This document shows, one piece after another, positions 40,504 through 54,541 of a stretch of 64,000 nucleotides of DNA. The stretch is from Candidatus Freyarchaeum deiterrae (GTDB lineage Archaea; Asgardarchaeota; Jordiarchaeia; Jordiarchaeales; Jordiarchaeaceae). Below the pieces are notes generated by a model. It ran no database searches and was not told the origin of the DNA. It saw nothing but the letters and a program-made list of their open reading frames with translations. How positions within the stretch are numbered: the first letter of the stretch is position 1; each line of letters starts with the position of its first letter. The translations under genes and the position numbers were made by a program. The stretch is from positions 288,001 through 352,000 of the forward strand of contig CP147778.1 in the NCBI GenBank assembly GCA_037305845.1. The letters run 5' to 3'.

Positions 40504-41442
40504 TTGCAAAAATTTTCGAGAGTGAGGAAAGTGATATATGGATTACTAATATTTGACAGAACTGGAAAAAATTTTTTCCAAAAGTTTTATGGTAACATCG
40601 AGGTAGAGGAGAACATCATACGCAGCTTCGTTAAGGAGCTGACAATCCTCATGTACAACCTTAATCAGGTCAATAGAATTTCGTACATAAATCTGGAAAA
40701 GCTGAAATTTTTCTACTCCATTTTTAAAGACATAATCACAGTTTTTTGCACGGATCAAAATGAAGATCTAAGGGACGTCCACGACAAATTCGTCAAAGTG
40801 CAGGAAGAATTTATTAAAATTTTCGACAATCTACCGAGAGAAGAAAATAAACTGGAGGGGGAATCGAAAATTGAGAATAGCCCTCTAAATGTATTTCAAA
40901 AAACTGTGGACAAGATACTTTTCCCCCATCTTAAAACAGTGATAATTGGAGATGGCGGAGTTGGAAAAACTACCATTCTGAAACTTATCATGGGAGAAAA
41001 GACGATTTCCCCTTACCTTCCAACGGTTGGAGTGGATGTTAAAGAGTTTAGTAACGCGGTCAAAAACATGAATCTTATTCTCTGGGACTTCTCAGGTCAA
41101 CCACAGTTCAGAAAACTCTGGAGACCATTTCTCGATGGAACCCACATCGCCATCCTAGTTACGGATTCAACACCTAAAAACATAGAAGAAACAAAAAATA
41201 TATACCAATTAATTAAAGAAGAAAAACCGGAAATGAATTTCATACTAATCGCTAATAAGCAGGACTTACCAGACGCAACCGCACCCGAAACCATCGGAAA
41301 ATACTTGGGAATAACAGCGCACGGATTAGTCGCAATTGACCCAAACTACAGAAAAAAAATACTAGAAATAATCAGAGAAAAAATCACAGAGCTCACCCAA
41401 GTCAAGTCTAAACCATCTCTGCCCATTGACGTTAAGGCGTAA
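40504..41442 (+). CDS. Longin-domain + Arf/Rab-like small GTPase fusion
   Basis: N-terminal longin-like pattern (IYGLLIFDRTGKNFF...LKFFY...IITVFCTD); GDGGVGKT, PTVG, WDFSGQ, NKQD. Confidence 0.85.
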   Translation: MQKFSRVRKVIYGLLIFDRTGKNFFQKFYGNIEVEENIIRSFVKELTILMYNLNQVNRISYINLEKLKFFYSIFKDIITVFCTDQNEDLRDVHDKFVKVQEEFIKIFDNLPREENKLEGESKIENSPLNVFQKTVDKILFPHLKTVIIGDGGVGKTTILKLIMGEKTISPYLPTVGVDVKEFSNAVKNMNLILWDFSGQPQFRKLWRPFLDGTHIAILVTDSTPKNIEETKNIYQLIKEEKPEMNFILIANKQDLPDATAPETIGKYLGITAHGLVAIDPNYRKKILEIIREKITELTQVKSKPSLPIDVKA

Positions 41443-43119: not shown

Positions 43120-43229
43120 AAAATAGTGCTCATTTAAAGGTTTTTTTTCGAAATATGTGGTAAATGTTTATCTATTATCTTTCCCATTAATTTATTCTAG
43201 CGACAGAATTTTTCGGATGGTGGATATTT

Positions 43230-44957
43230 TTGGAGAAGAGAATCAGTTGCATTGAGCCTGCGGATAAAGAGCTTTTTACTGGCAGACCTAGTGAGGTTAA
43301 AGAGTTTCAAGACTTTATTTCTGGAGTAAAGGCGGGTTCCGAAGATAAGAGAATTTGGGTAATTACCGGGATACCCGGCATTGGAAAGTCATCCCTGATG
43401 AAGAGGTTTATTCAGATAACTGAGACAGAGGGCCTAGAGGTACTGGTTAGAAATATTTCCGCCTCTGAGGCTAGAATGTTTTTCGATGGTGTGAAAAAAA
43501 CACTTGATAGTTACGCGCCTGAAGCTCGGAAAAAATTCATGGGCGAAAAGAAATACGTACCGGCTCCACCGCTTTCCAAAGAGATGGGGAGCCAGGAGTT
43601 TGAACAATTTTTTAACCAGTTCTTTGAGGATATGGATAAGGTTCAGCAAAAGCTCAGTAAGATTTTAGTGTTTTTCTGTGACAATTTCGAGCGTTTCGGT
43701 TGGTTGGGCTATGAGGCTGCTTACGATTTGTTCAGAAGAATAGCAGCCAGGCTGGGTGAAATGGGATTTAGCGTTTTCTTTATACTCAGTGTGGATAAAA
43801 AGTTTCTCGACTTGTTGGTGGATGATAAAGCGGAATTGTTTCGCGTAGTAGATTTGGATGTCTTCCCGGTGCAGGACGTACGTTTGTTGATTCAGAAATT
43901 TCAGAATGCGACGGGTATGAGGATTGATGATGCTCTTAAGGAGGAGTTAGCCAAAGCCTCAGGAGGTATCCCCTTTAAACTAGCATTATTTATCTGCGGT
44001 TTACTCAAGGAAACCCGTATGGGCGAGGTTCAACCGAGTGTGGAAATCTTTCGAAGAGTGGATAGCAAGATTCAGGATAACGCTCTGAACGCCTTAACCG
44101 ATCTAACCGTGGAGAAGGAGACTCTTGTAGATAAGATTGTTTCACAGAGGTTTAACTTGATTCCTCTAGAGGAACTTGGCTCAGAGGCGGGAGGGAAATC
44201 AAGCGGAAACGCTCTGAACGCTCTTATCGAAGAGGGAATAATAGAGGTTGATAGCTCCTCGGCTTGGCTTAAATCCGACGCGTTTTATGAAATGTTGAGA
44301 CTTCTTATTAACGTGGATCAGGTCTACGGTCGCGCAAGAGCCGTGCTGAAGGTAATCGGAAGAGTAATAGAAGTTAAGAACAGACCGGATCCCATTTACT
44401 TTGAGTGGCTGAGGGACTCTGCAAATATGCTGATCTCACAGGATAAACCCGCCCTAGCTGTAGAGATAGCCACGAATGCTGAGGTTTATGCAAACTCCGC
44501 GTTGGAAAATAAACTTTACTATGAATCCATGCAACTATTCCGCTTAACTGCTAATATCTACGAGAGGACGGGTGACTCTGAGCGTGCCGGAACTATTCTT
44601 GAGAGAGCCGCTAAACTCTTTGAGACTGAGGATAAGAGTTTCTATTCAAGGTCCCTGCTTTCCCGAGCCTCGGATCTTTTTGATGCTTCCAAGGTGGAGT
44701 GGAAAGCACGCTCCATATCTAGGAGCGCGGCTCTAATCTACGAGGAAACCGGAGACAGTTATGATGAGAGGGGGTTCAAAATGTTGGCAAGGGTTTTCTA
44801 CCGCAAAGCCTTTGAACACTATCTAAGGGCAGGGGATAAGGAGAGGATAGAAAGTTTATATGAAAAGGCTATGAACGCTTTTGGCGAGCAGCCAATTTTT
44901 CTAAAAGAGTTTGAGGAGTTAAAGAAAAAAGAAGGAGTAGTGGTTAAGGAGGAATGA
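43230..44957 (+). CDS. STAND-class P-loop NTPase with C-terminal TPR/alpha-SNAP-like helical repeats
   Basis: FTGR, Walker A GIPGIGKS, Walker B LVFFCDNFE, SGGIPF (GxP motif), winged-helix-like segment, then A/Y/E-rich TPR-like helices. Confidence 0.8.
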   Translation: MEKRISCIEPADKELFTGRPSEVKEFQDFISGVKAGSEDKRIWVITGIPGIGKSSLMKRFIQITETEGLEVLVRNISASEARMFFDGVKKTLDSYAPEARKKFMGEKKYVPAPPLSKEMGSQEFEQFFNQFFEDMDKVQQKLSKILVFFCDNFERFGWLGYEAAYDLFRRIAARLGEMGFSVFFILSVDKKFLDLLVDDKAELFRVVDLDVFPVQDVRLLIQKFQNATGMRIDDALKEELAKASGGIPFKLALFICGLLKETRMGEVQPSVEIFRRVDSKIQDNALNALTDLTVEKETLVDKIVSQRFNLIPLEELGSEAGGKSSGNALNALIEEGIIEVDSSSAWLKSDAFYEMLRLLINVDQVYGRARAVLKVIGRVIEVKNRPDPIYFEWLRDSANMLISQDKPALAVEIATNAEVYANSALENKLYYESMQLFRLTANIYERTGDSERAGTILERAAKLFETEDKSFYSRSLLSRASDLFDASKVEWKARSISRSAALIYEETGDSYDERGFKMLARVFYRKAFEHYLRAGDKERIESLYEKAMNAFGEQPIFLKEFEELKKKEGVVVKEE

Positions 44958-44964
44958 AAATTCT

Positions 44965-47277
44965 ATGGAAAAAATTCAGCAGAGAATAGCGGAAAGAAAG
45001 GAATCTCTAGTTGAATCAAACAACGCTGTTAAAGACATTGAGACAAAATTTAATGAAACCTTTTCCGCTTTGACAGAACAAATTGGACCTTCTTCAGAAA
45101 AATTGAAAGCAATTTCTAAGCAGTTTCAAACAAGTGAAGATAATCTGAAAAAAAAGTTCGCAGCCTCAATAAAGGGGGCTCAAAACAATATTGCTAACTG
45201 GATGCAGGAGATAGAAACCAGTCTTAAGGAGGAGATTAACACCCAAACCGGCTCGCTCAACCAGGGAATTGACACCATAACGGAGGAGCTGATATCGAAG
45301 CTAACCCAAATTGATTCGAACATTAACGGAAAGATTGAGGAGTCAAATAGCGGTGTTAGCCAGAAAGTCACGGAAACCCAATCAAGTTTAGACACGGAAT
45401 TAAACTCTTTAATTTCCCATATCGATGAATCCTCAGGAGAATTTCTCTCGAAAGCCGAAGAAAACAGAAAGACGCAGGAGGAGCTGTTATCGAATGTTTC
45501 TGAGGAACTAAAAAACCAGGTTCTCTCCAGCACCCAAAACTTTGGAGAATCAGAAAGCGGTTTTCTAAAAGAAAACTATAACGCTTTTACTTCTCAAATT
45601 ACGGATTTTGGTGCACGGACATCTGAAATTTTAGACGGTTATCAAGGTAATCTTGAATCCATGTTTTCGGATGCAAAAAAAGGCGCGGAATCCATAGTCC
45701 TTAAGATGAAAGAGAAGTTGGAAACGCTAGAGTCTGAGACAATAGGCAATTTGGAAAAGGCGTCCACGGAGTACTTGAACAAGGTTTCTGAGAATCACGA
45801 TTCTCTTAAAGGCGGATTGGATCAGAAATTGGGAGAGGCTACTTCCATTATAGAGGCAGCGAAGGAGGCGCTAAAGGCCGAAGTAAATAACTTAGCGGAG
45901 ACAAAACTAAAAGAAATAGAAGAGATTAGCAACCAAACGAGAGAAAAGCTTGACGAAGTTTCGGGTTTAAAGGAGAGAGATTTCTCGAAGAATGTGGAGG
46001 ATCTGCTTTCCGGCTTCTCTTCACAGCTTGTCGGTCAGCTTGAGAGGCTAGAAGGGAGTATGCAATCTCTGCAGGAGCAGGTAAGCGGAGATCTTTCAAG
46101 TGCTCTGGAACAGATTTCCAAATTGGTGACTTCAATTAACACTAATATCAATGCGATGTTTGTTTCGGAGTTGAAGGAGGTTCAATCCGTTCTTCAAAGT
46201 TATGAGGAGCAATACACGGAGCTGGTAAGTGGTTCTGTAAAATCTTTCTACGATGACGCCTCGGTCTTAAAGTCGGATTTCGATTCGAGATTAATGGAAA
46301 CCAGACAAGAGTTCAGCAAGTCGATGGAGACTTTGGTGGCCAAACTTTCAGAGTCTTTGGAGAATTATGTTGAGAAGAGCAAGACGGTAAAAGAGAGCAT
46401 CACAAATGATGTCTCGAATGTGCTGGATTCCAATAAAGCTTTACTCGAGTCTCAAAACGAGGAATTCAAAAGCAATGCATCCCAAGCTATAAAAAGCGCT
46501 ACTGAATCGTTTGGTGAAATGGGGGAGAGTTCGTCGTCAAGCCTAAGTGTTGGCGCAGACGAGACCATGCAAAAAATTACTGAAGAACTCACAAAGTCAA
46601 AGGACACCATCACTCAAATTATTGAAGAAAATAATGCCAAAACCGGAGAAGCCCAAGCGGCTTTCGAACAGAAACTGCAAGAACTGAACCAAAACCTAGG
46701 AACAAGTGTTGAAAACCTGGTGAAAGAATTCCAAGCTAAATGGGCTGAAGGCATCAGTGAAAACTCGTCAGCCAATACGGGAACTGTTGAAAACTTAAAG
46801 ACCTCATTAAAGGATACTATTTCGAACAGCATAAACAACCTGAAAGAAGAATTAGAGCGAACCAAGACGGTTATGGCTGAAACCACAAGCCAAGAAACCT
46901 CATCCATAAAAGAGCTTGTACAGAAAATGACTGAGACATCGGAGCAAAGCCTCGCCTCTGTTAAAACGAGTGTGAAAGAGAATCTAGATGGTACGGTTTC
47001 GGGTATTTCGACGCGACTTTCAGACCTAGGCACGAATACTGGTAATGAATTATCTGAAGTGGAAGAGGAGACTTTGAAAGAGTTGGGGAGCGGGATAGAT
47101 GAAATACAGGAAACCGTAAAAAATCTTATTAGCAGTTTCTCCGAGATTGACGGCGAAGTTAAAAGAAGTGGCGGGGGTGTCTCTAAAAACATTGCAAATC
47201 TATTGAAAACTTTGGGAGAAGCCTACAAGAGCCTCGAGGCTGCCGAAAAAGAAATCTCAAGTATAGGGGGTAGATAA
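44965..47277 (+). CDS. 770-aa all-helical coiled-coil/apolipoprotein-like protein
   Basis: E/S/K/L-rich, only one Pro, no Cys, continuous amphipathic helical pattern; no globular motif. Confidence 0.8.
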   Translation: MEKIQQRIAERKESLVESNNAVKDIETKFNETFSALTEQIGPSSEKLKAISKQFQTSEDNLKKKFAASIKGAQNNIANWMQEIETSLKEEINTQTGSLNQGIDTITEELISKLTQIDSNINGKIEESNSGVSQKVTETQSSLDTELNSLISHIDESSGEFLSKAEENRKTQEELLSNVSEELKNQVLSSTQNFGESESGFLKENYNAFTSQITDFGARTSEILDGYQGNLESMFSDAKKGAESIVLKMKEKLETLESETIGNLEKASTEYLNKVSENHDSLKGGLDQKLGEATSIIEAAKEALKAEVNNLAETKLKEIEEISNQTREKLDEVSGLKERDFSKNVEDLLSGFSSQLVGQLERLEGSMQSLQEQVSGDLSSALEQISKLVTSINTNINAMFVSELKEVQSVLQSYEEQYTELVSGSVKSFYDDASVLKSDFDSRLMETRQEFSKSMETLVAKLSESLENYVEKSKTVKESITNDVSNVLDSNKALLESQNEEFKSNASQAIKSATESFGEMGESSSSSLSVGADETMQKITEELTKSKDTITQIIEENNAKTGEAQAAFEQKLQELNQNLGTSVENLVKEFQAKWAEGISENSSANTGTVENLKTSLKDTISNSINNLKEELERTKTVMAETTSQETSSIKELVQKMTETSEQSLASVKTSVKENLDGTVSGISTRLSDLGTNTGNELSEVEEETLKELGSGIDEIQETVKNLISSFSEIDGEVKRSGGGVSKNIANLLKTLGEAYKSLEAAEKEISSIGGR

Positions 47278-47278
47278 A

Positions 47279-50200
47279 ATGTCTTCATGGGAAGAAACTC
47301 TAAAGGAAATAGGAATAACGGGCGAACAGGCTCAGGTTTACGCTGTCTGTGTTGGGCTGGGAGCGAAAACGGCATCAGAATTGGCTGTTTACACAGGACT
47401 ATCTATTCCAGCTGTTTCAGAGGAACTTGAAAAATTGCAGACAATGGGTGTGATCAAAAAAATACCGGGCAAAATAGATTTCTATATTGCTTTGACACCC
47501 AGGATAGCCCTCACTGGAATGGTTGCTGACACTCTACAAAAAAAACTTGAAAATTTGAAAAGCAACATCATGACGAGTACAAATAACGCGATTGATAGCC
47601 TAAATCAAAGCGTTGCCACACTCAAAAGTAAACTAAATGAAGGCTTGTCAAACTATCTGGGGGAGGTTAAAGAGGGCAGTTCCCAGATAGTAGCTCAGCT
47701 TCTCGGCTCAACCAGCGAATCTGTGGAGAATTTTAAATCCGAAGCGAATCAACAATCCCAGAGCGTTGAGGGGTACCTGCAGCAAATGCTTAACCTTCAT
47801 GAGAAGGACTCCAAGGAAACCATAAAAAATCTAGTTGAAGCGAGTACCGAGTCGGTGAGTACGTTCCGGAGTGACATACAGGAAGTAAAAGACACCTCTG
47901 AGAGTGTGCTGAAAGATTTCATTGAACAGACGCGAATCTCCATAACTGATTTTCAGGAAAAGTTGGAAGCTGCTGTGAATGATGCTGTTAAAACAATAGA
48001 ATCAAGAGCCGAGGATGTGTCGGGTAGAGCGATTTCTGAAGTTACTTCGCTTTTCTCGGATCTCGACTACGCTTTTGACCAGTCGGTAAAAGAAATTAAT
48101 GAGATTGACCTGCAGCCACTGGCAACCATTAATGAGAATGCCATAGAGATTTCCAAGACTGCCATATCGGGCATGTCGGAACTCATGGATGAATTGGGAC
48201 CTCTAACCGAGACTCAAATCACAAATATTCAGAGTATGAAAGAAGCATTTTTGAAGGACTTTAATAAAACTCTTGAAGCTAATCGAAAAAAACTAGTCGG
48301 TTTTATGGACGAGATTGAGGGAGCTCTTGATACTCAAACTATAAAGATTAGAGATTTAATACTTGAAAATCTCACGCGTTTACAAACAGAGACCTCCCAA
48401 GTAATGGAGAGGTACACGGAAAAAATAACTGAAGTTGGTGAAACCTCAAAAAACGCGATTGAGCAGGTGAAGATAAACCTAAGCATCCAGGAAGAATTAA
48501 ACACGCAGGAAAACCAGTTGAAAACATCTTTGGAGGAAGAGGTTCAAAAAGCGGAAAGCGAACTGAAAACGAAACTAGCAGAAATAGATGAGGAAAGCAA
48601 CTCCCTAAAGCAGAGAATAGGGAGCATAAAAGATAAAGCTATTCAAGATTCTAGAAACAGCTTGGGGTCACTTCTTAAAAAAATAAACAAAGCGATGAAG
48701 AAACATTTAGATGACTTTGTATCCAGCTTCAATTCCGAATCTTTAACTCTTAAAAGAAATCTATCCGCTAATTTTAACGACAGCGTCGCCGTCCAAAAAA
48801 GCAAAATGACCAGTTTTGAAGAAACCTTCACAACAGCGCTAAACAAGATGCTAGACATTATTCAGTTCATTGAAGACAAGTCCGGCGATAAGAAAAAACT
48901 TTCACTGGGAAAAGAGGAAACAGAAGAACTCCTAAACAAAGTTACCTCCAGCAAAAATGAAATCACGGAATTGAAAAAGGAACTGAGAAACTCTGTAAAT
49001 GACCTTAATGAAAACATCAATAAGGTGTCCACAATCATTCTCGACGCACTCGACAAAAGCTTAACATACATCGGTGAATCCTTCGCAAAAAAAACCGAAA
49101 AACTCGTCCAATCAATACAGGAAGAAGATACCAAATCAAAGGAAATCGCCAGTAAAGTAAAAGAGAGCCCCGTTAAAACAAAAGAAAGTGCTGTTAAGGG
49201 CACCGGAGACATAGGAGAAAGTGCGATAGTCTCCGAAATAACAAGCTTCAAGACCATAAATGAAAAAAGCTTGATTACGTTCCACTCGGAGGTTGAGACA
49301 CAAATCGATAAGCAACTCCCCGAGATGGAGAAGATTATAACCGACGCCGTCGGCCAAGTTACAAGCACCAAGGACAGTTGCTTAACAGTATTCGGGTCTA
49401 TTAAAAGCGGAATCGTTGAACAAATAGACAAATCCTCAGAAATTTTAGAAAGTTCCAGGAGCTTGCTTGAAGAAAGTTTAGAAAGCATCAAACAAACACT
49501 GGAAAACACGAGCACAGATACACAGAACATTGTCACTCCGATAAAGGAGAGTGTCAGCAGCCAGACTTTACAACAGTTCGCCGAGGAAAAAACTTCGCTT
49601 GAGGAAAACCTGGAATCGGAAATAAAAGAATCTTATAACGATACTAGACAGAGACTGGAAGACTTTCAATCCAGCGTGAAAGAGAACCTAAACGGCTACT
49701 TAGATAAAGCCAACAAATTAAGAGCAACAGCAGATAAAAACGTGTACTCAAACATTAATAAAGAATTCAAAGATTTAACAAAACAACTCGAGGAACAAAA
49801 AGAAAAACTAGAGGAGACTCTAACCAAAAGCAAAGATGAGATAGAAGAAAAACACAGCAAAGTGCAAAAGGGAGCGGAAGAGGTAACTTCAACCCTTGGG
49901 CGAGACCTACCCAGCTATGTGGAGAAAATAAAATACGACCTACTTTCCACCATGGATAGGCATAGCAGGGAGAGCAGAGACTCTGCGGAAGTCAAACTGG
50001 ACAGCCTTGCCGCTATCACAGACAAGCCCTTCTCAAACATAGAAAGCAAACTCCTAGACTTCGATAGAAAATTGGGCTTGTTATTCGAAAAACGCCACTC
50101 CGAACTCAAATCCAAAACCTACGAAGCCCTCGAAAGCCTAAAAGACAGCCACAATGCATTCGAAGAAAGCTTGAACAGCCTATACTCAAGCATGGAACAG

Positions 50201-50809
50201 ACGCTAAACCAAAAAGTAGAAGAAACAGTCTCAAAGCATCAAGAAGACACCAGCAATACCATAAACACCACCACCACAAGTATTGAGGAAAATGAGACGG
50301 GTTCAATTCAGGCTCTAAACACGTTCACGGGGGAAATCCCGGAGAGAATAGGTGATGCCATAACCAGTACTCAGGACACTCTAAAACTCATAACCCAAAT
50401 AATGAAACTATCCGAAGAAATAGAACCCAAACCCTTCGAAGACACCGAGAGAGTGGTCGGAAGAGAACAAATACTAAACCTGCTAAAAACATTTATTAAA
50501 AACACAAAGAGCACCATAACCATCCTCACCCCTACCGTAGATGACATACCCATAGATGATCTGAAACAGATACCAAGGCAGAGAGTAACAGTAATCACGG
50601 ACGCCGAGGGAAAAGCCCCACCGATGCCTGGCCACGTCCAGCTCAAACACAACCCTGGAAACGTATACGCCTTCAACCGGGACAGTGAAGAAATGATACT
50701 AGCAGTAGCCACACCGGAACCACTGGGAATATACACCATAAACATGGAGCTAATCAAACTACTAAACCAGATATTACAAGATGTGTCCGCAAGAGCTAAA
50801 AAAATATAG
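47279..50809 (+). CDS. TrmB-family protein: N-terminal wHTH, ~960-aa helical insert, C-terminal PLD-like (non-HKD) domain
   Basis: LKEIGITGEQAQVY...TASELAVYTGLS...LEKLQTMGVI...YIALTP; C-terminal VVGREQILNLLKTFIKNTKSTITILTP...RDSEEMILAV. Confidence 0.8.
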   Translation: MSSWEETLKEIGITGEQAQVYAVCVGLGAKTASELAVYTGLSIPAVSEELEKLQTMGVIKKIPGKIDFYIALTPRIALTGMVADTLQKKLENLKSNIMTSTNNAIDSLNQSVATLKSKLNEGLSNYLGEVKEGSSQIVAQLLGSTSESVENFKSEANQQSQSVEGYLQQMLNLHEKDSKETIKNLVEASTESVSTFRSDIQEVKDTSESVLKDFIEQTRISITDFQEKLEAAVNDAVKTIESRAEDVSGRAISEVTSLFSDLDYAFDQSVKEINEIDLQPLATINENAIEISKTAISGMSELMDELGPLTETQITNIQSMKEAFLKDFNKTLEANRKKLVGFMDEIEGALDTQTIKIRDLILENLTRLQTETSQVMERYTEKITEVGETSKNAIEQVKINLSIQEELNTQENQLKTSLEEEVQKAESELKTKLAEIDEESNSLKQRIGSIKDKAIQDSRNSLGSLLKKINKAMKKHLDDFVSSFNSESLTLKRNLSANFNDSVAVQKSKMTSFEETFTTALNKMLDIIQFIEDKSGDKKKLSLGKEETEELLNKVTSSKNEITELKKELRNSVNDLNENINKVSTIILDALDKSLTYIGESFAKKTEKLVQSIQEEDTKSKEIASKVKESPVKTKESAVKGTGDIGESAIVSEITSFKTINEKSLITFHSEVETQIDKQLPEMEKIITDAVGQVTSTKDSCLTVFGSIKSGIVEQIDKSSEILESSRSLLEESLESIKQTLENTSTDTQNIVTPIKESVSSQTLQQFAEEKTSLEENLESEIKESYNDTRQRLEDFQSSVKENLNGYLDKANKLRATADKNVYSNINKEFKDLTKQLEEQKEKLEETLTKSKDEIEEKHSKVQKGAEEVTSTLGRDLPSYVEKIKYDLLSTMDRHSRESRDSAEVKLDSLAAITDKPFSNIESKLLDFDRKLGLLFEKRHSELKSKTYEALESLKDSHNAFEESLNSLYSSMEQTLNQKVEETVSKHQEDTSNTINTTTTSIEENETGSIQALNTFTGEIPERIGDAITSTQDTLKLITQIMKLSEEIEPKPFEDTERVVGREQILNLLKTFIKNTKSTITILTPTVDDIPIDDLKQIPRQRVTVITDAEGKAPPMPGHVQLKHNPGNVYAFNRDSEEMILAVATPEPLGIYTINMELIKLLNQILQDVSARAKKI

Positions 50810-51013
50810 ACATAACATTTCAATTTTAACTTTTTTTCATTATACCCATTAGCTTGAATTTTTCTGCTAAAGCTAAGCTCATGAAATTAAAAGAAATAAC
50901 TCAAATTTTAGAGAGACTGCCTTTTTTTATTGCTTTTGTTTTTTTTAATTAACCATAAAGAATTAAAGGGTGCATGTCGCAGTTCCATTCTCTAGTTATA
51001 GAATATTTTCAAA

Positions 51014-52231
51014 TTGAAACAGCTTCAAAAGATGGATATCAAAATGGGAATGCGAAGCTCACGGAGTAGAAAAACTAGGAAGAAGATGGTTACCGAGCAA
51101 AAAGAGGCCTCCGCGGTCTCTATGCTTAAGCCTAACGCCATAATGTTTTTTACTAATGTTTCCATAGGAATTGGTCAAATCATTCTTCCTCTATTTGCTA
51201 AGGATCTGGGAGCCTCAGACACCCTGCTAGGCATTATCGGTGCGGGGTATGGGTTGGCTCTGCTCGTTTCCTCATACATTTTTGGCTGGGCTGCCGATGT
51301 CACCGGGAGAAGGGTTCTCTTACTGGCTGGCTTGCTGAGTTCTGCGGTAATGTACGGTATGCAGTTTTTGGTTCCCAATGGGAACTTTTTGTTTATAACT
51401 TGGTCTCTGGCGGGTTTTTGTGTAGGAATTTATCCTCAAGCCTTGATAGCTTACGGCTATGAACTGAAGAGAAAAATGGGTACATTTGTATCATATGGTT
51501 CTCTGGGCTGGGGTTTGGGAAACCTTATTGCGGGAATTATTGCCATTTACCTGGATGTATTCATCTTAGCGGGTTTATTCTTCTTATTAGGGTTTGTAGT
51601 TGCACTCAGAATGCCGATTACCGATGTTAGACTCAAGGTACCCTTGTTTCCCAAACACGTAATTAAGAGAAATGTATCAATTTATATAGCATTTTTCCTG
51701 AGACACACGGGCGCTTATGCCGCGTGGATTATTTTCCCCCTCTTCTTAAGGCAGCTGGGTGCAAACGATGTATGGATAGGTGTACTGTACGCAATAAATT
51801 CCTTCGGCCAATTCTTTATGATGAGACCCTTAGATAGGTTCAGAAGCGTGTCATTGGTTATAGGTGGGCTTTCATTCTCCGCATTGACATTCTCCCTATA
51901 CTTCTTTGCACAAAACGTTTGGCAAGTAATTCCCATTCAGCTAGTTCTAGCCCTCTCATGGTCTCTACTTTATATCGGCTCTCTAAAATTCGTAGCCGAA
52001 AGCGGGATTGAGAGAGGAACGTCAGTAGGTTTACTCAATCTGACCATCAGCCTCTCAACAGTTATCGGGCCCCTAATAGGAGGAGTCATCAGCCAACTGT
52101 GGGGATTCAGATACACTATGCTCTTCGCTCTGGCCCTAACTCTCGCTGGTTTATTATTTTTCACACTCTATCTAAGACACAGCAATAACAACACTCAAGA
52201 ACCACAAAATAAAAAGAATAAAAAATTGTAA
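51014..52231 (+). CDS. MFS transporter
   Basis: About 12 TM segments; motif A GWAADVTGRR. Confidence 0.9.
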   Translation: MKQLQKMDIKMGMRSSRSRKTRKKMVTEQKEASAVSMLKPNAIMFFTNVSIGIGQIILPLFAKDLGASDTLLGIIGAGYGLALLVSSYIFGWAADVTGRRVLLLAGLLSSAVMYGMQFLVPNGNFLFITWSLAGFCVGIYPQALIAYGYELKRKMGTFVSYGSLGWGLGNLIAGIIAIYLDVFILAGLFFLLGFVVALRMPITDVRLKVPLFPKHVIKRNVSIYIAFFLRHTGAYAAWIIFPLFLRQLGANDVWIGVLYAINSFGQFFMMRPLDRFRSVSLVIGGLSFSALTFSLYFFAQNVWQVIPIQLVLALSWSLLYIGSLKFVAESGIERGTSVGLLNLTISLSTVIGPLIGGVISQLWGFRYTMLFALALTLAGLLFFTLYLRHSNNNTQEPQNKKNKKL

Positions 52232-52302: not shown

Positions 52303-52758
52303 TCAGATCTTGGTCGAAATGCTTTTACCGAACTCCTCAGCTTTGGCAAGTTCACCTTCAACAAGTGGACCCTTCGAAAACCCCTTGATTTGCGTTGTTA
52401 AACCCGGAGCAACCAGTTTTAGCCCTGGAATTTTTCCTCGAATCTGTTTCTCCATTTTTTGAACAGCTCTGAGGTCATTTCTCGCGTGTGTGTCGAAAAC
52501 AGCGCCTGCTTTTCCTTTCAAATCAAGCTTTTCTAACTTTTTCAGGAAATTCTTGATGTCTCCCACCGGTCCTCCCCCGTTATTTGGGGAACCAATAATT
52601 AACGCATCATATTCTAAAGCTTCTTCGGGTTTAGTTTCCTTAACGTCCTTGACTGCAGCCTCTGCCTTTTTCGTTGTATTAATACCCTTGGCTATTGCCT
52701 CTGCTACTGCTTTGGTGTTCCCGTACCTGCTCCAATAAACTACCAATGCTTTTGGCAA
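52303..52758 (-). CDS. Flavodoxin, copy 1
   Basis: YWSRYGNTKAVAE, IIGSP, AVFDT. Confidence 0.9.
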   Translation of the reverse strand: MPKALVVYWSRYGNTKAVAEAIAKGINTTKKAEAAVKDVKETKPEEALEYDALIIGSPNNGGGPVGDIKNFLKKLEKLDLKGKAGAVFDTHARNDLRAVQKMEKQIRGKIPGLKLVAPGLTTQIKGFSKGPLVEGELAKAEEFGKSISTKI

Positions 52759-53032: not shown

Positions 53033-53497
53033 TCAGATCTTGGCCGAAATGCTTTTACCGAACTCTTCAGCTTTGGCAAGTTCTCCTTCAACAAGTGGAC
53101 CCTTCATAATTCCCTTGGCCTCTCCTCCAAAACCCGGAGCCACCAGTTTTAAACCCGGAATTTTTCCCCGAATCTGTCTCTCCATTTTTTGAATAGCTCT
53201 AAGATTACTTTGTCCCGGACCACTGTGTGTGTCGAAAACAGCGCCTTTTTTTCCTTTCAGATTAAGCTTTTCTAATTTTTTCAGGAAATTCTTGATGTCT
53301 CCAACCGGTCCTCCACCGTGGTTTGCAGAACCAATAATTAGCGCATCGTAGTCTAAAACCTCTTCGGGTTTAGTAATCTTAACGTCCTTGACTACAGCCT
53401 CTGCCTTTTTCGTTGCATTAATACCCTTGGCTATTGCTTCTGCTACTGCTTTGGTGTTTCCCGTCTTGCTCCAATAAACTACCAATGCTTTTGGCAA
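53033..53497 (-). CDS. Flavodoxin, copy 2
   Basis: YWSKTGNT; near-identical to copy 1. Confidence 0.9.
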   Translation of the reverse strand: MPKALVVYWSKTGNTKAVAEAIAKGINATKKAEAVVKDVKITKPEEVLDYDALIIGSANHGGGPVGDIKNFLKKLEKLNLKGKKGAVFDTHSGPGQSNLRAIQKMERQIRGKIPGLKLVAPGFGGEAKGIMKGPLVEGELAKAEEFGKSISAKI

Positions 53498-53765: not shown

Positions 53766-54221
53766 TCAGATCTTGGTCGAAATGCTTTTTCCGAACTCCT
53801 CAGCTTTCGCAAGTTCACTCTCAGCAATTGGACCCTGCATTCCCTCAACCTGCAATGCTAAGCTTGGGGCAACTAGTTTTAGGCCTGAAATTTTTTCCTG
53901 TATCTGTTTCTCCATTTTTTGCCCGACTTTAAGGTCGTTTTTATTATGTGTATCAAAAACGGCGCATGCTTTTCCTTTCAAATTAAGCTTTTCTAATTTT
54001 TTCAGGAAATTCTTGATGTCTCCAACCGGTCCTCCCATGTGATTTGCCGAACCAATAATTAACGCATCGTAGTCTAAAACCTCTTCTGGTTTAGTATCTT
54101 TAACATTCTTTACTACTACCTCTACCTTTTTTGCTGCCTTTATTATCCCTTTGGCTATTGAATCTGCCACTTTTTTGGTGTTTCCGTACCTACTCCAATA
54201 GACAATTAAAACTTTTGACAA
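53766..54221 (-). CDS. Flavodoxin, copy 3
   Basis: YWSRYGNT; TTG at 54221 aligns with the starts of copies 1 and 2. Confidence 0.9.
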   Translation of the reverse strand: MSKVLIVYWSRYGNTKKVADSIAKGIIKAAKKVEVVVKNVKDTKPEEVLDYDALIIGSANHMGGPVGDIKNFLKKLEKLNLKGKACAVFDTHNKNDLKVGQKMEKQIQEKISGLKLVAPSLALQVEGMQGPIAESELAKAEEFGKSISTKI

Positions 54222-54541
54222 AATCACATCACTCCCCAAATAGACTTTTAGTATCTTCTTATTCAATCGTACAAATATCTTTTACTCTAATCTAAGCGCA
54301 AGATTAAATATCTTTAGGAAACAAGGAATAATGGAAGTATGGAAGAACTTACCTAAGATTTTCTCACTCTCAAGAATAATTCACTCTCCGTGTTTTAGGA
54401 GGGGTCTCTCAAGGATCTTCCACTTTGCGTGAGCCTAGAGCCAACCTAGAGAAGGCTACGCGTCTCGTATAACTTTCGGCTTTAGGCCATAGAAAAGGTA
54501 ATAGGGGAATTAAAGAAGAAATAAGAAATGAGGGAGCGAAA

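Follow-up and report, generated by a model that had tools for sequence, protein, structure and literature searches.

In the complete 3.58-Mb genome of Candidatus Freyarchaeum deiterrae, an operon of three genes on the plus strand was analysed within a window of 64,000 nucleotides (nt; positions 288001-352000 of the genome), where it occupies positions 43230-50809. The genes encode a STAND-type nucleoside triphosphatase (NTPase; gene 1), a headless helical rod (gene 2) and a TrmBL2-type protein whose linker is expanded to a long helical rod (gene 3), and they are separated by gaps of 7 and 1 nt, respectively. That this module has been inherited vertically as a unit in many Asgard lineages is well supported. 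As to what it does, our preferred reading, to which we assign somewhat less than an even chance, is that of an Asgard-specific, DNA-anchored three-gene module in which a long arm anchored at the nucleoid acts as a tether or spacer under the control of a nucleoside triphosphate (NTP) switch. The positions of all features are collected in Table 1.

Gene 3 and its hendecad rod

The assignment of gene 3 as a TrmBL2-type protein, composed of a winged helix-turn-helix (wHTH), a helical linker and a PLD-like domain, is strongly supported. The N-terminal TrmB wHTH exceeds its Pfam cut-off (Table 1) and is conserved in 10 orthologs. The C-terminal domain of 129 residues was modelled by AlphaFold2 (AF2) with a predicted local distance difference test score (pLDDT) of ~90, and a Foldseek search with it returned TrmBL2 first (PDB codes 5bpd, 5bqt and 5box), followed by NucT, TrmB (2f5t and 3qph) and other proteins of the PLD superfamily, including nucleases. 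These matches came from the fold search; a search of PDB sequences with a profile of the domain gave only noise, and PF11495 was not detected directly in gene 3 by the Pfam scan. Five positions of the C-terminal domain (K61, R118, D119, E121 and E122) are invariant in the ortholog alignment. No HKD motif is present in the PLD-like domain, which is strongly supported as catalytically dead, and the sugar-binding β-barrel is also absent; the protein stops after the PLD-like domain and the matches span only profile positions 1-137 of 233. Devoid of both the HKD motif and the barrel, gene 3 thus has the domain set of TrmBL2, a chromatin protein of the Thermococcales.

Gene 3 resembles TrmBL2 and TrmB in its TrmB wHTH, in the helix that follows the wHTH directly and in a PLD-like C-terminal domain without catalytic HKD residues; in lacking the C-terminal sugar-binding barrel it resembles TrmBL2, whereas TrmB proper has the barrel. 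It differs from both in the length of the linker, which reaches ~970 residues here and up to ~1600 in orthologs, compared with ~30. Further differences are the hendecad periodicity of the linker, its probable folding back and its conserved apex motif, as well as the operon context of gene 3, next to genes for a STAND NTPase and a headless rod. The first-pass annotation, which had been made from the sequence of the window, described gene 3 as a TrmB wHTH split from its PLD-like domain by a long helix, and this description stands.

With a profile of the gene-3 C-terminal domain, five further proteins of this genome were retrieved: two canonical TrmB proteins (258 and 278 amino acids (aa), both of which pass PF11495) and three long paralogs (539, 753 and 1306 aa). 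The family motifs TK and (R/V)D.xE are common to the C-terminal domain of gene 3 and the canonical TrmB proteins. The long paralogs lie at loci L052, L053 and L054 (G000:C1:1173380-1177300, 1064804-1067065 and 1276120-1277739, all on the minus strand) and form a length series with the two canonical TrmBs. The 1306-aa and 753-aa paralogs comprise a TrmB wHTH, a hendecad rod and a TrmB-type C-terminal domain, while the 539-aa paralog comprises rod and C-terminal domain without a wHTH. Neither a STAND gene nor a gene 2 lies next to any of the three. Proteins of 204 and 288 aa adjoin paralogs 1306 and 539 (L052:8811-9422, plus strand, and L054:2957-3820, minus strand), displaying an N-terminal domain without assignment and a C-terminal winged helix (TrmB-like or HTH_24).

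The hendecad register of gene 3 begins directly after the wHTH, and the core positions of the gene-2 and gene-3 rods fit an a-d-e-h pattern, with Leu, Ile, Val and Phe. When the 2078 open reading frames (ORFs) of at least 200 aa in the genome were ranked by hendecad signal, the first five places were taken by gene 2, gene 3 and the three gene-3 paralogs, with values of 20.3 for gene 2 and 8.5 for gene 3 against a 99th percentile of 1.9, so that chance is a most unlikely source of the signal. In this genome the hendecad register is exclusive to gene 2 and proteins with a TrmB_C domain.

In most of 22 gene-3 orthologs (1176-1812 aa), a Lys-rich motif lies within ~25 residues of the rod midpoint, taken as the geometric midpoint between wHTH and C-terminal domain. 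Examples across the orthologs are KKKLSLGK, SSLFGLRK, NKLFGKGE, KGMFGKKD, KKVFGPKK and QRVFGKEE, and in gene 3 of the window the motif is located ~25 residues before the computed midpoint, in the element EDKSGDKKKLSLGKEETE. A regular expression for the motif, scanned over ~30,000 residues, gave 15 matches, 10 of which fall within ~20 residues upstream of the midpoint. Paralog 753 carries a similar motif, PRKKAFTG, at its midpoint. A hidden Markov model of the apex built from midpoint windows was set aside, being circular for close relatives and weak for distant ones; the evidence for the apex comes from direct inspection, the regular-expression scan and the symmetry of indels.

Length-matched indels in both gene-3 arms were observed between close relatives in three lineages (labelled f1, f5 and f16). 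In f16, where proteins of 1532 and 1393 aa share 73% identity, deletions of 33, 40, 33 and 33 aa are located at -415, -186, +184 and +397 from the apex, a symmetry reached by random placement in 0.6% of trials. That these indels are mirror-symmetric and not translation-symmetric argues against gene conversion between direct repeats. In f5 (1484 vs 1259 aa) the deletions amount to 117 vs 105 aa per arm. In f1, within the genus of the window, forms of 1339 aa lack 231 and 241 aa relative to forms of 1812 aa, in one block per arm, and in the 1176-aa gene 3 of the window the deletions relative to the 1812-aa forms sum to 333 and 315 aa per arm. The motif at the midpoint, together with arms that change length in concert, points to an intramolecular antiparallel fold-back and not to lengthwise pairing with gene 2; the simplest reading of the sequences is that the gene-3 rod would form an intramolecular antiparallel coiled coil with its apex at the Lys-rich motif. 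With its two halves paired antiparallel, the protein would unite wHTH and PLD-like domain in a head resembling that of TrmBL2, and the apex would lie ~70 nm from this head in the window's protein (arms of 454 and 498 residues) and ~120 nm in the 1812-aa forms.

The first-pass annotation had instead suggested a long heteromeric rod or filament that is built from genes 2 and 3, bears DNA-binding heads and would be assembled or remodelled by the STAND protein; in this model the two hendecad proteins would co-assemble lengthwise. The two proteins do share the 11/3 register and a similar composition, their genes are translationally coupled (1 nt apart), a weak BLAST similarity joins them (E value of 7e-5), and in the forms of 1806-1812 aa the arm of ~795 aa comes near to the gene-2 length of 767-773 aa. 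Elsewhere, however, the lengths part: gene 2 measures 770 aa here, 479 aa in Heimdallarchaeaceae and 436 aa in f14, whereas the corresponding gene-3 arms measure ~470, ~610 and ~630 aa. The two arms of gene 3 vary in length together but not with gene 2, whose length (425-773 aa) does not track that of the arm, and some lineages have no adjacent gene 3 or no separate gene 2. With the midpoint motif in addition, we regard the heteromeric rod as decidedly unlikely and favour the gene-3 fold-back over it.

The headless rod and the STAND-type NTPase

Gene 2 is strongly supported as a headless straight rod, with a length here of ~115 nm if it is a single helix. The 770 aa of the protein include a single Pro and carry a net charge of -56, and no globular domain, transmembrane (TM) segment or signal peptide was detected in it. 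The hydrophobic period is 3.665 residues with a power of 20.9, compared with 0.0 at the heptad value of 3.5, and the phase is constant from residue ~20 to ~760, or about 70 unbroken hendecads. Hydrophobic occupancy at positions a-d-e-h is 76/36/66/54%. Lys is concentrated along the borders of the hydrophobic face, and Asp/Glu on the side opposite to it. In orthologs the sequence is poorly conserved while the periodicity is kept in every one, and the length is set per lineage: 767-773 aa in three families at ~23% identity, and 425-440, 479-487 or 718-721 aa elsewhere, consistent with a rod for which length is important. The ESM Atlas monomer model is poor (pLDDT of 0.37) and matches only unnamed bacterial coiled-coil clusters scoring <0.9. 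Comparison of orthologs revealed no conserved termini across families that could act as docking sites. In the clade of f1 and f2, a GG(G) break (SGGGVSKNI...) sets the last ~35 residues (~735-770, window 47170-47277) apart from the rod, and the f16 and f10 orthologs have KKP at this place; the set-off segment could be a terminal docking helix.

The 3.67-residue period and the a-d-e-h-like positions of genes 2 and 3 recall hendecad coiled coils, such as the peripheral stalk E-G of A/V-ATPases and tetrabrachion, and also the 11-mers of apolipoproteins, although homology is not established with any of them. The unbroken register of gene 2 is far longer than that of these coiled coils, and both proteins differ from apolipoproteins in being cytoplasmic, strongly acidic and without Pro punctuation. 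A further explanation is that genes 2 and 3 encode helices that lie flat on a lipid surface in the manner of apolipoproteins, perilipin, synuclein or LEA proteins, gene 3 then tethering DNA or being a membrane-sequestered regulator. Helices on lipid surfaces typically have an 11/3 periodicity; gene 2 scores 98.4 bits against Pfam Apolipoprotein (PF01442; cut-off of 90) and 57 bits against ApoLp-III, its Lys residues flank the hydrophobic face as described above, and the apex loop of gene 3 is basic with a hydrophobic residue. The Apolipoprotein match follows the periodic low-complexity pattern, the Pro-punctuated 22-mers being absent, as are a signal peptide and a TM segment, and gene 3 remains below the same cut-off (80 bits). 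Net charges of -56 and -53 for genes 2 and 3, respectively, also speak against a lipid-coating function, as do the mirror-matched gene-3 indels, which imply pairing of helix with helix and not a lone surface-bound helix, and the fit of the hydrophobic positions to an a-d-e-h hendecad coiled-coil core. Lipid coating is, thus weighed, very unlikely.

The protein encoded by gene 1 is strongly supported as a STAND NTPase that carries a TPR sensor but itself lacks an effector. Its AF2 model, based on an alignment of 12 orthologs, has a pLDDT of 87 and comprises a nucleotide-binding domain, a helical domain, a winged helix and ten TPR-like helices. Foldseek revealed the archaeal STAND-TPR protein 6mfv as the first match, followed by Avs3/Avs4, Cdc6/Orc1, RuvB, Apaf-1 and the archaeal ATPases 2fna and 2qen; NOD2 was also among the matches. 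Across the 12 orthologs G50, G52 and D151 are invariant and K53 nearly so, while the position after the Walker B Asp varies between D, N, S and C, which would fit a switch and not a motor. Gene 1 lies below every Pfam STAND/AAA_16 cut-off (AAA_16, 30.8 vs 32.6 bits; ATPase_2, 28.4 vs 33.2 bits; nSTAND1, 22.3 vs 27.1 bits) and is a separate family within the clan.

In its nucleotide-binding domain, helical domain, winged helix, helical repeats and Walker A/B and GxP motifs, gene 1 resembles the STAND-TPR proteins (MalT; PH0952-like 6mfv; Avs3/Avs4; Apaf-1). It differs from them in having no fused effector or DNA-binding domain and in forming a small family of its own, with ~30 full-length clusters at 50% identity among 1.84 billion representative proteins; the next matches are NTPase-only archaeal ATPases of ~380 aa. 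No effector domain is present, N-terminally or elsewhere. The extent of the operon, the gaps between its genes, the STAND hallmarks (FTGR, Walker A/B, GxP and winged helix), the lack of an N-terminal effector and, for gene 2, an uninterrupted amphipathic helix of 770 aa had all been noted from the sequence beforehand, and the searches and models bear them out. The same annotation described the gene-1 C-terminus as TPR/SNAP-like: the TPR part holds, TPR_14 being above its cut-off when the tail was scanned alone (25.9 bits; cut-off of 23.5), and the SNAP part remains sub-threshold (19.3 bits; cut-off of 25), with a match to Sec17/alpha-SNAP at an E value of 0.03. Five small TPR proteins elsewhere in the genome (L055-L059, 135-330 aa; G000:C1:2558889-2559296, 1351369-1352358, 2419898-2420848, 1269427-1270419 and 1354713-1355471) resemble the gene-1 tail, and three of the five exceed the Pfam SNAP cut-off of 25 (27.9, 25.3 and 39.6 bits). 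A predicted complex of full-length gene 1 with the gene-3 C-terminal domain scored 0.24 against a mark of 0.32 and was counted neither for nor against an interaction.

STAND-TPR proteins such as MalT are ligand-gated transcription activators, and the operon could by analogy be a sensor-regulator module in which the STAND-TPR protein senses a ligand and controls gene 3, acting as a TrmB-type transcription factor of a small regulon or of its own operon, while the rods only oligomerise or sequester. This would agree with the membership of gene 3 in a family of transcription regulators, with the MalT precedent, with 6mfv, an archaeal STAND protein with a TPR domain, as the best fold match of gene 1, and with the variability of the position that follows the Walker B Asp, suggestive of a slow switch and not of a motor. 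It is not evident, however, why such a module should need an arm of 70-120 nm whose halves are strictly matched and whose apex is conserved, or in addition a headless rod of fixed length; the closest structural relative of gene 3 is the chromatin protein TrmBL2 and not the sugar-sensing TrmB, whose barrel is absent; and no conserved palindrome was seen upstream of gene 1 when the upstream regions of the genus were compared. We therefore consider sensor-regulator function unlikely, and retain the long-arm tether or spacer as the preferred reading.

Distribution in Asgard archaea and layout of the locus

A profile of the gene-1 ATPase matched 76 of 301 Asgard genomes, with one full-length copy in each. 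Presence is all-or-none by family (29/29, 11/11, 5/5, 5/5 and 3/3 vs 0/76, 0/68 and 0/19), and in the gene-1 tree each family sampled more than once forms a single group; two variant gene orders, described below, form supported clades. The order gene 1-gene 2-gene 3 is retained in lineages f1, f2, f4, f5, f10, f14, f16, f18, f24 and f25 amid unrelated flanks. Distribution outside the phylum was judged from a search of representative proteins and the source names of the matches: the named gene-1 members are all Asgard (Freyarchaeota/Jordarchaeia, Wukongarchaeota, Heimdallarchaeaceae, Hermodarchaeota and 'Promethearchaeota') and include, in Heimdallarchaeaceae, the complete genome of Ca. Heimdallarchaeum endolithica. 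Existing annotations call these members hypothetical, ATP-binding or HTH-domain proteins. No family in Pfam, NCBIfam or PADLOC describes the module and no description was found in the literature searched. The earlier suggestion that the combination belongs to no characterised system is thereby upheld, and its synteny among relatives extends to at least 10 Asgard families.

A role in immune signalling had also been raised in the first-pass annotation. In such a scheme an Avs-like STAND sensor would act with the rods as partners, loosely like the long ZorA tail of Zorya, in antiviral defence. The Foldseek matches of gene 1 to Avs3 and Avs4, the PADLOC ZorA-tail models that match genes 2 and 3 at an E value of 1e-17, and a match of PDC-S39 to the TPR domain lend themselves to this view. 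The ZorA matches are, however, confined to the coiled-coil tail, and the NCBIfam ZorA score is 31 bits against cut-offs of 190-250; genes 2 and 3 differ from ZorA in having no MotA/ExbB-type domain and no TM segment (maximum 19-residue hydropathy of 0.58 and 1.15, respectively). The PADLOC matches to ZorA, LmuB and LeoB and the NCBIfam matches to ZorA and TrlF were attributed to the coiled-coil pattern. Nuclease, protease or other effector domains are not present, the PLD-like domain being without HKD. Immune signalling is disfavoured because gene 1 is single-copy, fixed in whole families, grouped by family in the tree, surrounded by metabolic and other housekeeping genes, and without any match in the phage and plasmid searches; defence is accordingly extremely unlikely.

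A 110-nt AT-rich spacer precedes gene 1 and contains the TATA-like element TAAATGTTTATCTAT, which is nearly invariant in the upstream regions of four genomes of the genus and is a putative promoter element. A small palindrome upstream of gene 1, ATTCT-N6-AGAAT, was discarded, its conservation within the genus being absent. The T-rich runs behind gene 3 may act as a terminator. Family-library scans revealed ordinary flanking genes, which encode the alpha subunit of an acetate-CoA ligase, an MFS transporter, a hydrolase and flavodoxins. The flavodoxin genes (Pfam Flavodoxin_1) form a tandem pair, accompanied on the same strand by another ORF of comparable size (window positions 52303-52758, 53033-53497 and 53766-54266, all minus). 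Two genes upstream of the operon (40504-41442, plus strand) is a 312-aa protein with an Arf/Roc/Ras-family GTPase domain at residues 141-272, preceded by ~120 aa that weakly match a longin-like domain (clathrin adaptor small chain); a longin-like and GTPase protein of this kind is a typical Asgard signature. In two Wukongarchaeia-like genomes (G012 and G023), a 300-aa small GTPase (Gtr1/RagA/Arf-like) is divergent from and directly upstream of the operon (L015:7041-7940, plus strand; L019:412-1314, minus strand), which may be due to chance given the many GTPases of Asgard archaea.

Table 1. Positions of the operon, its domains and motifs, and adjoining elements, in window coordinates.
Feature	Residues	Position	Strand	Basis
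TATA-like AT-rich element TAAATGTTTATCTAT upstream of gene 1		43161-43175	+	sequence reading
GGTGG, ribosome-binding-like site, 6 nt ahead of gene-1 TTG start		43219-43223	+	sequence reading
Gene 1, STAND-type P-loop NTPase with C-terminal TPR/SNAP-like repeats	575 aa	43230-44957	+	ORF, TTG start
Gene 1, FTGR motif	16-19	43275-43286	+	translation
Gene 1, nucleotide-binding domain	~20-210	43287-43859	+	motifs, 12-ortholog alignment, AF2 model
Gene 1, Walker A GIPGIGKSS	47-55	43368-43394	+	translation
Gene 1, Walker B VFFCDNFE	147-154	43668-43691	+	translation
Gene 1, helical domain and winged helix	~214-360	43869-44309	+	AF2 secondary structure; RuvB and Cdc6 lid/winged-helix matches
Gene 1, GGIP (GxP) motif	245-248	43962-43973	+	translation
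Gene 1, TPR-like helical repeat domain	~364-566	44319-44927	+	ten helices in AF2 model
Gene 2, headless hendecad (11/3) amphipathic helix	770 aa	44965-47277	+	ORF
Gene 3, TrmBL2-type protein, linker expanded to long hendecad rod	1176 aa	47279-50809	+	ORF
Gene 3, TrmB wHTH	8-74	47300-47500	+	PF01978, 36.7 bits (cut-off of 25.6)
Gene 3, N-arm of rod	78-531	47510-48871	+	phase tracking
Gene 3, apex element EDKSGDKKKLSLGKEETE, Lys-rich (K)KhFGK-type motif	532-549	48872-48925	+	ortholog midpoint comparison
Gene 3, C-arm of rod	550-1047	48926-50419	+	paired indels; antiparallel pairing inferred
Gene 3, C-terminal PLD-like domain, TrmB/TrmBL2 type	1048-1176	50420-50806	+	AF2, Foldseek
T-rich runs, archaeal terminator-like, after gene 3		50826-50950	+	sequence reading
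MFS transporter, next gene after operon		51014-52231

A possible DNA-anchored arm under an NTP switch

The expansion in gene 3 of a dimerisation helix of TrmBL2 type, ~30 residues long, to a hendecad helix of ~970 residues is strongly supported. In the long-arm tether or spacer that we propose, the gene-3 heads, to judge from homology, would bind DNA as TrmBL2 does, the arms would project from the nucleoid, and the apex could dock onto another apex, gene 2, the TPR domain of gene 1 or the membrane. Docking of the apex would bridge DNA or space it over tens to hundreds of nanometres. Gene 2 may serve as a strut or ruler of fixed length, and the STAND protein as a nucleotide-dependent switch that gates assembly, the NTPase being supplied in trans.

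The plan suggested for gene 3, with a DNA-binding head, an antiparallel arm of equal halves and a short conserved apex element, would be analogous to that of SMC, Rad50 and MukB, in which the counterparts of the apex are the zinc hook of Rad50 and the hinge of SMC. Gene 3 does not belong to the SMC or Rad50 families: its termini are a wHTH and a PLD-like domain and do not form an ATPase head of ABC type, the NTPase is encoded apart as a STAND protein, neither a CxxC hook nor a hinge domain is found, and the register is hendecad and not heptad.

Several points weigh against this proposal. DNA binding by the gene-3 heads is presumed from homology, and the fold-back from the symmetry of indels and the midpoint motif. 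The arms of the window's gene 3 are unequal by 44 residues, and the mirror placement of the f1 deletions (-374 vs +310) is less exact than that seen in f16. Gene 2 has no assigned role beyond that of a rod. One clade (f21, f29 and two metagenome contigs) has gene 1 and gene 2 without an adjacent gene 3, a gene-3-like protein lying ~8 kb from the pair in one f21 genome, while in another (f28 and f30) gene 1 is followed directly by a gene-3-like rod protein of 1110-1123 aa with a TrmB-type C-terminal domain, and there is no separate gene 2. The three parts are thus not obligatorily linked. Proteins of the f28/f30 type are found at L040:9526-12894 (minus strand) and L042:3517-6846 (plus strand); a wHTH was undetected in them by Pfam (E <= 0.01) or by the ortholog profile (E <= 1e-5), although their N-termini look wHTH-like by eye.

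Newly described here are the mirror-indel evidence within genus and family, the recurrence of the midpoint motif in different families, the confinement of the hendecad register, genome-wide, to gene 2 and proteins with a TrmB_C domain, the length series of paralogs and the phyletic pattern at family level. Asgard archaea are the closest known relatives of eukaryotes, and to our knowledge little has been learned of how their DNA and cell interior are organised beyond histones, actin and ESCRT. The module is fixed in whole Asgard families, including Heimdallarchaeaceae and those of the Wukong, Hermod and Frey/Jord groups, and a gene-3 arm of tens of nanometres would be a sizeable fraction of a small cell. 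It provides a possible example of a short dimerisation helix that has grown into a fold-back arm, with an evolution by matched indels that can be read from genomes, and of a STAND switch that relies on an effector provided in trans. All three proteins are judged to be soluble and expressible, making the model directly testable.

Should the head indeed bind DNA and the apex dock at another site, the arm would be a new means of bridging or positioning DNA that arose independently of SMC and Rad50. It is possible, though on balance doubtful, that Asgard archaea thereby possess a third kind of long-arm DNA-organising machine beside these two, derived from a TrmBL2-type chromatin protein, in which a fold-back docking arm, a ruler rod and a STAND gate would set the distance of DNA to other DNA, to the membrane or to a protrusion.

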